IMG/VR virus record: IMGVR_UViG_3300033997_000310
Span: 50,802 to 114,801 of that record
Strand: one strand, 5' to 3'
DNA from: a virus
DNA length: 64,000 nucleotides
Part shown: one piece after another, positions 22,907-64,000 of the stretch
Position numbering within the stretch: position 1 is the stretch's first letter
Layout: each line of letters opens with the position of its first letter
Made by a program: the position numbers and the translations under genes
The notes under the pieces: model-generated
Told to the model about the DNA's origin: nothing
Seen by the model: only the letters and a program-made list of their open reading frames with translations
The model's database searches: none

Positions 22907-23020
22907 GTTTGAGTTCCTGTTTGCAGATGGTGATGGGAAAGGTACATCATGGCGGGCAATGAGAAAAGTGCATAATTTGACCGGCCCCGGCAGGCGGGGG
23001 GATTTTTGCGTTCATCACTC

Positions 23021-24307
23021 AGTTGACGGACCCGCAGCGGCGGGTGGCGGCATGAACGAGAAGCCGCAGTTGCGCACCTCTTTTTCGTCCCCGCGCTGGC
23101 GGGGAAAGGGGCGTTGCCGAATCCGTCCTTTATCAATTTCCATACCCGCAACTGCGTGGTCGCTTGGTCGGCGGTCGTGACCGCTCCACCACCGAGTTTT
23201 CACCCCCGCGTGTGCGGGGAAGGCCACGGCTGTCTTGCGCGTCGGTCTACGGAGCCATTTTTCATCCCCGCGCGTGCGGAGCAGCATTGGCGCTGGATAT
23301 CATCGCGGACCTGAACCAATTTCCGTCCCCGCACGTGCGGGGGAGGCCTGGACGGCAGAGACCTACCAGCGCCTCGATTGTTTTCGTCCCCGCGCGTGCG
23401 GGGGATACCCCGCCACCTATCGCCGCAATGGCGTGTTCCTGTTTTCGTCCCCGCGCGTGCGGGGGAGGAATGAACATCCAATCAATGTGCAAGCCCTGCC
23501 ACTTTCCGCCCCCGCCCATGCAAGGCTTCCCATTTTATCAAGCAGTCGTCATTGGCCGCTCTTTCCACCCCCGCCATGCAGGGAACCGTCCGCCCGATGT
23601 TGGCTCCATCCATCTGGTTGTCGTCCCAACGAGTGCTGGGAAAGTGATTCTGCCACGGGTTGAAATGGTGGCGTCGATATTTTCACCCCCACTGGATTGC
23701 GGGGTAGGTGAGGCATCGTATCGGTTTCGTCAGACCCGGCCAAGTTTCCGTCCCCACCAGAATGCGGGGCAAGAGAGACGAAGGCTGGCACGTTCAAGGT
23801 GGTGTTCGTGTTTCCGTCCCCACCAGAATGCGGGGTAAGCAAAACGCTGTCCTTGCCGCTGGTACGTCGCCTCACGTTTCCGGCCCCGCCCAAATGCGGG
23901 GTATGTGAACCCTCATTTTTCCGATTTCGTACCCATCAAACGTTTTCGTCCCCGCCCAAATGCGGGGTAAGAGAGACACATGCACAAGGCTGGCCTGATA
24001 ACCGGTTGTTTCCGTCCCCACCTAAATGCGGGGTAAGAGAGACCGGCGCCCGGGTGAAGCGGATGGCCCGCCAGTTGTCGTCCCCACCTAAATGCGGGGT
24101 AAGAGAGACACATCGGGGGGTGAATCCGAACAGCGATCTGTTGTCGTCCCCACCTAAATGCGGGGTAAGAGAGACGCTCGTCATCGCTCAGAAGATCCCG
24201 CTCCAGTTGTCGTCCCCACCTAAATGCGGGGTAAGAGAGACTCCCGCCGACGGCCATCGGGCGCGGTATAGGTTGTCGTCCCCACCTAAATGCGGGGTAA
24301 GAGAGAC
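23021..24307 (-). CRISPR. Main CRISPR array, about 21 repeats of two classes
   Basis: Ten 36-nt repeats start at 23679, 23744, 23810, 23876, 23942, 24008, 24074, 24140, 24206 and 24272; the last four are identical (GTTGTCGTCCCCACCTAAATGCGGGGTAAGAGAGAC). About 11 shorter repeats start at 23021, 23081, 23136, 23196, 23258, 23319, 23380, 23441, 23502, 23561 and 23617 (e.g. GTTTTCGTCCCCGCGCGTGCGGGGGATAC). Confidence 0.95.
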
Positions 24308-24408
24308 TGATCCTAACACAACTCATTGCAATCAAATACGAATTACGCATTCGCATTTGAAAAAAACCATGATGTACTTGTTCAAGAACCGGTGAAAATG
24401 CGCGCTTT
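24308..24408 (-). promoter_or_regulatory. CRISPR leader
   Basis: AT-rich non-coding stretch abutting the most conserved repeats. Confidence 0.7.
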
Positions 24409-25470
24409 TTACGGCGCGCGGAAGTTCAGGCTGGTCACGTCGGTGGCATCCCAGGCCGCCAGCGCGGAAGCGATGATGCCGGTATCCAGCAACTCCAGGC
24501 CACCGAACGGTTCGATCTGGACGCTGCCGACATTTGCGAAGCCGTCACCTTCCCGCACCGTCACCGTCCAGGTGCCGCTGATCACCCCGCAGCCGTGATT
24601 CGCGTGCGCCCCGACAACCGGGTCCAGCGCCAACTCACGCAGCGCGGCCAAGAACAGGCCCAACTCCAGCTTGGTCACGTTCCGCAGAACCATGCGCTGG
24701 TTCAGCACCTTACCCTGCGGGATCACCTCGTAACCGCCCAACACCTGCTTGATGTTGACGCCGGCGGCCTCGACCTGCCCCTTCAGCGCGTCACGCTTGG
24801 CGGACAGTTCCGCGACTTCAGCAGCCGCATCGGCATTGCCCTTGGCGTTCTTCACGGCCTTGCGCAGGGCCGTCTCGATGTTCTTCAGTTCGGCCTTGGC
24901 CTTGCTGTTGCTGGCACCTTCCTCCGACATGGACAGCCACTTGTCGCGCTCGCCATCAGCCAGGGTATTGAGCGTGTCCGGGGTGCGTTCCATGTCATCG
25001 CTGCGGATGCCAGCGATCTTATCCGGTTCGGTCGGCTGTTCCGGCACGGCATGGCTCACCATCAGCTTGCCGGCGGTATGCGCGGCCATGCTGCCGAAAA
25101 GCGAGATCAGCGGGTTCGCGGCACGCAGATTGGCCGCCGCGATGATATCGGCCTTGCTGTCGCTGCCCTTGTCCTTGATGCCGCCGACCACGTTGAAATA
25201 GTGGTCATCCAGGGTGAAGACGGGAGCGCCATCACCCTGCACCGCGCGGCGAACGACGGTGAGCGCGTGCCGACGCAGCTTTCCGCGCAAGCCGGAGCCA
25301 GGGAAATAGACGGTCTCGGCATTGCCCACGGTCATGCGGGGCAGACGCGACGGCGGGTTCTTCTCGCGTTCGGCGCGCTTCTCGGTCTCGGTCTTCGGCG
25401 GGCAGGTGGCCAGAGGCGATTCGGTGGTGATGGTGCCGTTCAGGACGACGGTATAGGTCTGGGTGTTCAT
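24409..25470 (-). CDS. csf2: Type IV CRISPR backbone subunit Cas7
   Basis: Motifs GTITTESPL, FPGSGLRGKLRR, NPLISLFGS, GKLMVSH and VGAHANHGCG. Start moved to ATG 25470 because the longer ORF runs through repeats. Confidence 0.9.
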   Translation of the reverse strand: MNTQTYTVVLNGTITTESPLATCPPKTETEKRAEREKNPPSRLPRMTVGNAETVYFPGSGLRGKLRRHALTVVRRAVQGDGAPVFTLDDHYFNVVGGIKDKGSDSKADIIAAANLRAANPLISLFGSMAAHTAGKLMVSHAVPEQPTEPDKIAGIRSDDMERTPDTLNTLADGERDKWLSMSEEGASNSKAKAELKNIETALRKAVKNAKGNADAAAEVAELSAKRDALKGQVEAAGVNIKQVLGGYEVIPQGKVLNQRMVLRNVTKLELGLFLAALRELALDPVVGAHANHGCGVISGTWTVTVREGDGFANVGSVQIEPFGGLELLDTGIIASALAAWDATDVTSLNFRAP

Positions 25471-25520
25471 GTTCGTGTTCCATGTTGGGTAGGTGCGGGG
25501 TGGCCCGCGATCGAGTGTGT

Positions 25521-25858
25521 TTTGTCGGCCCCGCGTGGGCGGGGCATGAGCAGAAACCCACTCGACCTCTGGGCGGTGACTTTTCGCCCCCGCGTGTGCG
25601 GGGCGAGAGTCGGTCGGGATGTGGCCAATCACCTTCTCGTTATCGTACCCGCGCGGGTGCGGGTTTTGGTCTTGACTGTCACTGAACTTCGCAATCTCCA
25701 TCCTCTTGCCGTCCCCGTGCTCGTGCGGGGTGAGGGGTGCGTCGTTCGATTACTCGGATGACAACGAAGTCCTTACCGTCCCCGCGCACGTGCGAGGCAT
25801 CGGCTGTTGTGCTTTCGGATCAAGACCAGCCCTTTCCATCCCCACTCACGCCGGGAAC
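25521..25858 (-). CRISPR. Degenerate array between cas6 and csf2 (6 repeats)
   Basis: Handle plus CCCCGC..GCGGGG hairpin units start at 25521, 25580, 25639, 25705, 25772 and 25832 (periods 59, 59, 66, 67, 60). Confidence 0.75.
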
Positions 25859-62929: not shown

Positions 62930-63300
62930 TGGGGTGGGTGTAAAGGGGGTTTGATGAAAAAAATGTAACGCAATCAATGGTCTATGTGGGTTTGGGTGGT
63001 GATGGATAGGGGGGCGCTTTAGGGCGCCGTGGAAGGGGCTTTGTGGGGGCGCGTGGGGTGGTAGGGGAAATGGCTGGGCAGGGATGGGAGGCGCTGTGAG
63101 GGGCGTGAAACGGGCTCTTGGGATGGGTTGGTGTGGGGGTTAGGGGGGGGTGGGGAGCCTGGCGCGGGCAGGATGGGGGATTAGGTGGATGGGAAGGGGT
63201 GGAAGGGTGGATAGGGGGAAGCTGGGGGCTGTGAGGGGCTGATAGGGACGCTGTAGAGCTGGCAAGGGTGGGGATGGGGTAGGGTGCGGGTTTGGGGTGG
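62930..63300 (+). repeat. G-rich, C-poor low-complexity non-coding tract
   Basis: Dozens of G3-G7 runs on the + strand; no credible ORF. Confidence 0.7.
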
Positions 63301-63350
63301 GCTTAGGGTCGTGGTCCTGGGCATGGTGGGGCCATGTCCAGAATGCCGAA

Positions 63351-63375
63351 AGGCCCGGCTGTGGGGCCGGGCCTT
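63351..63375. terminator. Stem-loop downstream of the 63405-63641 gene
   Basis: AGGCCCGGC...GCCGGGCCT. Confidence 0.55.
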
Positions 63376-63404
63376 CGTGCGGGTGGGTAGGTGGGCGATG
63401 GGGC

Positions 63405-63641
63405 TTAGGCGTCGTAGTCGCCGCCCAGGGCGCGCAGGTCAGCGGTCAGGGCGTTGATGCGCTTTGTGACCAGACCCTTGTCATAGCCGGTCAGGCTGTC
63501 CCGCAGGCGATGGGCGCGGGTGAGTTGGGCCTTGATGCCGGCGATCTTATGGCCGGTCTCGCCCTTGGTCGCGGCGGCCTTGCGGCCAGCGGTCAGGATG
63601 AAGGCCGTGGCTTCGGTGGCGGTGGTGTTGATGGCGGTCAT
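63405..63641 (-). CDS. Hypothetical basic protein
   Basis: GGGAG RBS with the CCATCTGCAA motif upstream. Confidence 0.6.
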   Translation of the reverse strand: MTAINTTATEATAFILTAGRKAAATKGETGHKIAGIKAQLTRAHRLRDSLTGYDKGLVTKRINALTADLRALGGDYDA

Positions 63642-64000
63642 GGTGGTCTCCCTTGCAGATGGTCGGGGGCGTGATTGCCGTCCCGATGTGTGTAAGGTAG
63701 CCGCAACCACCGGTTGTGTCAATGGGAAAATATCATTGAATCAATGGGCTATGTGCATTTTTTGATGGGCAGGCGGTGGGCCGTATAGCTGCCATATATA
63801 GAGGTCAGGCTATGGGGGTGTGGCCGGATAGGGGGCGCGTAGACCGCGCGTGGGGTGGGGTCGGGTATGGGGTGGGTCCGGTGCCGGGGCGTGGTGGGCG
63901 ATGGTATGGGCGCACGTTCACGGCATGTTCGAATATCATTGCCGATTATGAGTCGATGGCGCATATTCAAAGGGCGCCGCCGGGGAAACCCGGCGGCGCC

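Follow-up and report, generated by a model that had tools for sequence, protein, structure and literature searches.

Predicted operators of a CI/Cro-type switch dispersed over a temperate phage genome, including sites upstream of a type IV-A CRISPR-Cas module

Dispersed operators that serve one immunity repressor are known from L5 and from P1. In L5, with its repressor gp71, and in the Cluster A mycobacteriophages, more than 20 stoperators lie at promoters and in short intergenic spaces, and a single repressor silences the prophage (PMC9283540). Stoperators of L5 are asymmetric and 13 bp long, a monomeric repressor with two DNA-binding domains binds them, and their orientation follows transcription (PMC9283540). 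The C1 repressor of P1 has 22 dispersed operators, which are asymmetric and 17 bp long (PMC8546580). CRISPR-Cas systems of type IV-A have been described mainly on proteobacterial conjugative plasmid-like elements (PMC7038947). In this study, we analyzed the final 64 kb (bases 50802-114801) of IMGVR_UViG_3300033997_000310, a single-contig IMG/VR virus record of 114,801 bp from a subsurface metagenome. These 64,000 nucleotides are called the window here, and positions refer to the window unless given as genome positions. It carries a cI-type repressor gene, a divergent cro-like gene and a type IV-A module, all of which are accompanied by copies of one dyad motif of about 21 bp. We consider it probable that these copies are operators of the phage's own P22-C2/434-type CI and of its Cro-like protein.

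The immunity region has the arrangement of the lambda-type phages P22 and 434: CI combines a helix-turn-helix (HTH) with a LexA-like S24 self-cleaving domain, a cro-like gene diverges from cI, two to three dyad operators are predicted in the cI-cro gap and one after cI, and the dyad core of 15 bp falls in the class range of 14-18 bp. Operators of 434 have conserved outer half-sites around an A/T-rich, non-palindromic center, and the predicted sites are built in the same way. Unlike the lambdoid phages, which confine their operators to OL and OR, this genome has 27 sites of at least 14 bits spread over 115 kb, including late operons and the CRISPR-Cas genes. In this respect it is like L5, with more than 20 dispersed predicted operators in promoters and short intergenic spaces, but it is unlike L5 in the dyad ends of the sites, in the HTH+S24 repressor and in an orientation that does not follow transcription. 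P1 is a comparable case of about two dozen dispersed sites on a temperate phage genome of ~100 kb; its operator, however, is fully asymmetric, C1 is unrelated and has no S24 domain, and its prophage is a plasmid, whereas here the ends form a dyad and an integrase is encoded. One particular feature is a lambda-type HTH+S24 repressor with ~27 predicted sites in an alphaproteobacterial phage lineage, and what is new is the predicted coupling to CRISPR and a conserved strand polarity of the sites. The module shares dinG, csf genes and a Cas6-family gene with type IV-A systems of other mobile elements and differs from those described in belonging to a tailed temperate phage, behind predicted operators of its own switch. 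A literature search returned no description of a type IV-A CRISPR-Cas system coupled to the operators of a phage's own switch.

The motif was first noticed in a first-pass annotation, which listed 17 sites of 15 bp with the form ATG-N9-CAT and held that their A-rich core and their positions, more than their ends, are the evidence. All 17 are present; the copies of ATGAGAAAAGTTCAT at 27868 and 51016 are the same, and the sites at 22959 and 46111 each differ from it by one mismatch. The caution about the ends was justified, as the window has 32 ATG-N9-CAT matches against 21.3 +/- 4.4 in shuffled sequence, 2 of 100 shuffles reach 32, and the 15 matches that had not been listed have GC-rich centers and lie in coding DNA. 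Core and position do carry the evidence. The non-coding DNA of the whole genome (22.4 kb, CRISPR arrays masked) contains 30 such sites against 9.8 +/- 3.2 expected; 20 of these 30 have at least six A/T among the nine central bases, against 1.6 +/- 1.3 expected, and none of 500 segment-wise dinucleotide shuffles attains either 30 sites or 20 sites with AT-rich centers. The position weight matrix scan that had been proposed in the same annotation was done with a 21-column matrix; over the whole genome, 27 sites reach 14 bits or more, compared with 0.82 +/- 0.9 in 60-bp-block shuffles. Expectation-maximization on the non-coding DNA, with the ends unconstrained, recovers the same dyad of ~21 bp, ATAATGAGA...TCTCATTAT, in palindromic form ATAATGAGAT.ATCTCATTAT, with A1, T2 and G3 at 0.95, 0.95 and 0.84; the dyad ranks second, behind only a G-rich tract at the window's end. 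For this, the background was of order 2 and the number of sites was capped; with a zero-order background, the model became a generic AT-rich one. Exact k-mer enrichment did not pick up the motif, because the motif is degenerate.

The 15-bp core reads ATG(A/G)G-N5-(C/T)(T/C)CAT and has A/T flanks, which give ~21 bp in all and an oriented consensus of (A)TAATG(A/G)GAAAA..T.CAT(A/T)A. In the symmetric core obtained by expectation-maximization, a distance of 10 bp, one helical turn, separates half-site ATGAG from half-site CTCAT, which fits binding by a predicted dimer; the center is an A-tract and is not symmetric. Leave-one-out scoring separates the 17 listed sites into 11 strong members of 16.9-27.1 bits (22959, 27868, 33308, 41872, 45311, 46063, 46111, 51016, 59457, 62913 and 63722), three weak ones of 8-11 bits (22933, 33259 and 63744) and three that do not belong to the motif at 0-5.5 bits (62449, 62471 and 63925). 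The strong sites are indeed intergenic once gene starts are re-read; the only one that may fall within a gene is outside the window, at genome position 37366. Pairing is also borne out, with partners 22-49 bp apart that include two sites without an exact ATG or CAT end, 27833 and 41849, which had been absent from the earlier list. Two other identities of the motif were considered and rejected. As a coding start it would read M-R/G-K-x-H, and only the copy at 46111 is in frame with a real gene. It also fits none of the alphaproteobacterial LexA, CtrA, sigma-54 and IHF consensus sequences; the LexA box of these bacteria is GTTC-N7-GTTC and their CtrA box is TTAA-N7-TTAA.

The features of the immunity region are as follows.

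45369..46061, minus strand: cI-type repressor gene (HTH_3 6.7e-11, Peptidase_S24 1e-8)
46111..46443, plus strand, divergent from cI: cro-like HTH gene (weak Phage_CI_repr/HTH_3 matches)
46063..46077: predicted cI-side operator of the cI-cro gap, nearly palindromic ATGGCAAATTTCCAT (20.3/20.9 bits on the two strands)
46111..46125, plus strand: predicted operator at the start of the cro-like gene (16.9 bits)
45311..45325, plus strand: predicted operator just 3' of the cI stop, in an OL-like position (22.3 bits)
46730-46999: second HTH_3 gene

The N-terminal domain of CI has P22 C2 (best, E 3e-7) and 434 Cro as its closest solved relatives, and the CI sequence retains GNSM...VKR and an Ala-Gly. 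Its true start is probably an internal Met near 46013, as in homologues, and the site at 46063 lies ~50 nt upstream of this likely start. The second site of the gap is 48 bp from the first, and its ATG is in frame with the Cro-like open reading frame (ORF). Between the cI stop and the operator at 45311 there is a terminator-like hairpin (45346-45361).

Conservation of the motif was examined at loci fetched for CI homologues from a protein collection; relatives are few, amounting to four lineages including this phage, plus two contrasts. CI identity to this phage is 70% in L011, 51% in L033 and 39% in L034/L035, and all of these have 2-3 copies of the same motif in the cI-cro gap, with counterparts of the 46063 site in L011, L033 and L034. 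The gap of L034 contains three tandem sites 23 and 27 bp apart. L011, L033 and L034 each have one copy 45-60 nt past the cI stop, the position of 45311, and more copies are scattered over each locus. The matrix trained on this genome gives 3, 5 and 5 matches in L011, L033 and L034, respectively, per 15-17 kb, against 0.2-0.4 expected, and no matches in the loci L036, L013 and L031, whose HTH proteins are only distantly related. The Cro-like protein, which has the helix DQSTISGW, is homologous to the divergent ORFs of L011, L033 and L034, and a recognition helix (D/H)QS(T/S)(V/I)..W is common to the CI and Cro-like proteins of all four lineages. In L036, both proteins have different helices, the gap has a different palindrome, and there is no ATGAG-type site; in L037, the protein in the Cro position keeps a helix DQSAVSLWE, and the gap has ATGA-N5-TCAT-type sites with a shorter spacer. 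At the level of sequence, the motif follows the CI/Cro helix across lineages. We regard the sites as probable operators of CI and of the Cro-like protein because 2-3 copies in the gap, a copy after cI and a common helix recur in four lineages and are absent in L036. The first-pass annotation had called all of its sites CI or Cro operators, and this prediction is supported for the strongest pair, in the cI-cro gap, with its conservation alongside the CI/Cro helix; it fails for 62449, 62471 and 63925. What was observed is the motif, with its enrichment, positions and conservation alongside CI and Cro; binding, the sign of regulation and the positions of promoters are predictions.

The type IV-A module and its sites comprise the following features.

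24409..27796, minus strand: type IV-A cas operon of two csf genes, a cas6e-like gene and csf2 (RAMPs and CRISPR_assoc (Cas6e family) matches)
20693..22906, minus strand: dinG (csf4) helicase gene (Helicase_C_2 6.7e-16, DEAD)
23082..24308, minus strand: CRISPR arrays (periods 61 bp and 66 bp)
27963-28616, plus strand: GH19 endolysin gene
27868..27882, plus strand: strong predicted operator in the gap between the first cas gene (minus) and the GH19 endolysin gene (plus) (23.9 bits)
27833..27847, minus strand: weak predicted partner operator, 35 bp from 27868 (11.5 bits)
22959..22973, plus strand: strong predicted operator in the gap between dinG and the CRISPR array, 53 nt upstream of the dinG start (24.7 bits)
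22933..22947, plus strand: weak predicted partner operator, 27 nt upstream of the dinG start (11.2 bits)

Two genes of the module are without a Pfam match, and the Csf2 homologues carry Csf2 as their source name. The first cas gene most likely starts at 27796, after a perfect AGGAGG, so that its gap to the endolysin gene is 166 bp. A perfect TATAAT on the minus (cas) strand (27886-27881), one of nine in the genome, overlaps the site at 27868, and a protein bound there would therefore cover the -10 box and the start point. Searching with Csf2 homologues led to two further IMG/VR contigs, L055 (9.7 kb) and L056, the latter being the other end of the contig with the 70% CI. Each of the two has a gap ahead of its cas operon, and the pair of sites in that gap, ATGCGTTTTTATCAT and ATGAGTTGATCTAAT, aligns with the pair in this phage; the weak site at 27833 is the one that aligns with ATGAGTTGATCTAAT. 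This second site ends in ...ATCTAAT in L055/L056, and the same ending occurs in that phage's own cI-cro gap. The divergent neighbor there is not an endolysin but a 295-aa protein without a family, beside a tail-fibre-adhesin-like gene; since the neighbor differs while the site pair stays, the pair belongs to the cas operon. The earlier proposal that the cas genes are part of the phage regulon gains support from this alignment, and the regulation itself is a prediction.

Further observations were made in this module. The longest ORF of csf2 (24409-25701) encodes 430 aa, whereas the database gene call and all homologues have 353-375 aa, which puts the real csf2 start ~77 codons further in. A terminator-like hairpin with a T run lies on the plus strand at 22985-23008, 12 nt after the operator at 22959 and between dinG and the last CRISPR repeat. 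It would halt transcription antisense to dinG rather than cas-strand read-through into dinG. A weak site in the CRISPR leader (24356, 12.9 bits) was dropped, as it is not conserved in L055.

If the sites are operators of CI and Cro, CI would occupy them in a lysogen and shut the promoters that they overlap. Self-cleavage of CI, induced by the SOS response, would free the sites, Cro would then bind the same sites, and the cas effector genes and dinG would be switched together with the lytic program. Repression of cas by CI in the lysogen and release on SOS induction appears to be the more likely sign of regulation, because the perfect -10 box of the cas strand overlaps the operator at 27868. 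We suggest only tentatively, as something that may well not hold, that the complete type IV-A module is part of the CI/Cro regulon, with silencing switched by an SOS-sensitive repressor, and that the polarity of the sites in four lineages reflects a second, orientation-dependent role of the repressor.

Several observations weigh against operators of CI and Cro. The entire leader upstream of cas is conserved in L055/L056, so that conservation of the sites in it is not site-specific proof. The strand bias of the centers is unrelated to gene direction and is not predicted by simple promoter occlusion with a symmetric dimer. Sigma-70-type promoters are not enriched, with only one or two matches near sites, and the 45-nt flanks of 23 aligned sites have no companion -35/-10 element at a fixed distance; overlap with a promoter is for these reasons proposed for single sites only. 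Sites also precede late operons (terminase and capsid), which is unusual for a lambda-type CI, and the phage encodes other DNA-binding proteins, namely the second HTH_3 protein, MucR, HU and a ParB_N-domain protein. These last two points favor an explanation that we consider rather unlikely, in which the sites belong to one of these other proteins (the second HTH_3, MucR-like, HU-like or ParB_N protein) or are part of a phage-specific promoter, and the copies in the cI-cro gap would reflect control of the switch by that factor instead of binding by CI and Cro. The asymmetric, strand-biased center also speaks for it, as do A/T flanks that resemble -10 boxes at some sites; exact TATAAT, however, overlaps only 2 sites among its 9 occurrences in the genome, so the motif is not simply a -10 box, and a promoter part would not be expected to be without a companion element at fixed spacing. 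The dyad symmetry and the tandem gap sites of L034, 23-27 bp apart, are classical operator architecture, and the motif tracks the CI/Cro helix across lineages. Proteins of the MucR and HU types, moreover, bind DNA with low sequence specificity.

The polarity of the centers raises an alternative of its own. The A-rich center is on the plus strand in 19 of the 22 strong sites that can be oriented (p about 9e-4) and in all 15 sites in gaps between co-directional genes (12 sites between minus-strand genes and 3 between plus-strand genes). The three exceptions are in divergent gaps, where minus-strand genes start. Non-coding DNA outside the sites shows no A/T skew, and the same polarity relative to cI is kept in 11 of 13 matches in the three relatives. 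Such a pattern could indicate a strand-polar function of the DNA, for example in blocking replication or translocation in one direction or in signaling packaging or recombination, with control of transcription secondary or lacking. We judge this improbable, since the sites are not evenly spread but head transcription units and lie in the cI-cro gap, their ends are two-fold symmetric, and no candidate polar-binding protein was identified.

Recognition of the sites by a global regulator of the alphaproteobacterial host would be in keeping with the host-like regulators that the phage carries (MucR and a GcrA/DnaA_C-domain protein), but it is very improbable given that the motif is absent from unrelated prophage loci, including L031 of Rhizobium, fits neither the LexA nor the CtrA box, and tracks the CI/Cro helix of the phage. 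Origin by chance in AT-rich intergenic DNA, for which the marginal enrichment of the ends in the window and the three listed sites that are chance matches might be cited, is refuted by the excess over composition-preserving shuffles (20 vs 1.6 and 27 vs 0.8) and by conservation in three other lineages.

Operators of CI and Cro, then, are the reading under which we describe the rest of the genome. In addition to the two sites of the cI-cro gap and the one after cI, the 115-kb genome has ~24 more copies, which head most of its transcription blocks. Those outside the window include sites in front of the blocks for terminase/portal and for scaffold/capsid, and others in front of an HU-like gene and of a gene for a GcrA/DnaA_C-domain protein. 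The other predicted operators of the window, and the integrase gene, are the following.

33308..33322, plus strand: strong (26.6 bits), with a weak partner at 33259 (8.0 bits)
41872..41886, plus strand: strong (19.6 bits), in the gap between the mucR-like gene and a gene for a 615-aa protein, with a weak partner at 41849-41863 (15.0 bits)
51016..51030, plus strand: strong (25.2 bits), 74 nt upstream of the ParB_N-domain gene
59457..59471, plus strand: strong (24.0 bits), 26 nt upstream of a radical-SAM gene
62913..62927, plus strand: strong (27.1 bits), 24 nt upstream of a minus-strand gene for a 91-aa protein
63722..63736, plus strand: strong (23.1 bits), upstream of a minus-strand gene for a 105-aa protein, with a weak partner at 63744 (10.4 bits)
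30474-31748: tyrosine integrase gene

The site at 33308 lies in a 364-bp gap of 40% GC, upstream of a leftward block that ends in the integrase gene. The one at 62913 is at the edge of a G-rich region and is overlapped by a plus-strand TATAAT. This region of ~1.6 kb (62890-64000 plus genome 1-540) is strongly G-rich on the plus strand, with a GC skew of +0.33 to +0.57 and long G runs; it has few convincing genes, contains 4-5 operator sites and includes the 127-bp overlap between the two ends of the record. The region may serve as an origin or in packaging.

Two further sequence elements were seen near the operators. The first, (C)CATCTGCAA, is sense-strand-specific. In at least 10 genes, including dinG, it immediately precedes the Shine-Dalgarno sequence at a distance of 15-27 nt from the ATG, usually with an operator 3-60 nt upstream of it. 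Its copies are on the minus strand in the window (22922, 41818, 54630, 58274, 59768, 60970, 62390 and 63654), at genome 2218 and 6858, and in L011 at 4973, 7009 and 7530; base composition alone would give ~3 copies of the 8-mer, and there are 17. The layout is retained in the 70% relative (L011) and not in L033 and L034. The element may belong to the 5' untranslated region, and its placement suggests later true starts for the 615-aa gene (~41796) and for a DnaN-like gene (~62363). The second, the palindrome ATATGCAAT.TGCATAT, has ATG-N7-CAT spacing and is found at genome 6933-6949 and 16700-16716, outside the window, with half copies at genome 2280 and 27949 and at 45296 in the window, always at most 45 nt from an ATG-N9-CAT site. 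It could be the site of another regulator, such as the second HTH_3 protein. A separate 8-mer, CGATCCAG, has 21 plus-strand and 9 minus-strand copies scattered genome-wide, mostly in or near genes.

The genome has a GC content of 61-62%. The 127-bp terminal overlap indicates that the assembly is circular or terminally redundant, with a genome of ~114.7 kb. Genes were called with an ORF picker based on GC at third codon positions, and starts are approximate unless stated. The sequence points to a temperate, tailed phage with an alphaproteobacterial host, the host being indicated by the MucR and GcrA domains and by DNA matches to Azospirillum and Komagataeibacter mucR. Among phage and plasmid records, Megablast matched only mucR and recT fragments and no close relative, and CI and Csf2 searches of the genome contig collection did not find one either. 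The window also encodes RecT, SSB and the MucR-like regulator (ROS_MUCR match). Auxiliary metabolic genes at 37550-39966, in the leftward early block, are NAPRTase/NAMPT-like and ribose-phosphate pyrophosphokinase-like and suggest NAD salvage; the radical-SAM gene is at 58582-59430, and two DNA methylase genes lie within 52956-56275.

To our knowledge, little has been learned about the regulation of CRISPR-Cas systems on mobile elements. Type IV-A systems act by silencing instead of cutting, so the timing of expression decides whom such a system serves. Should the cas operon and dinG prove to lie behind CI/Cro operators, the phage would provide a simple, testable case in which CRISPR interference is tied to the lysis-lysogeny switch. 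The sites also indicate that the polarity of operators can be conserved without following transcription. With the predicted operators, the phages that control a whole genome through dispersed sites would come to include an alphaproteobacterial lineage whose repressor is of the lambda type.

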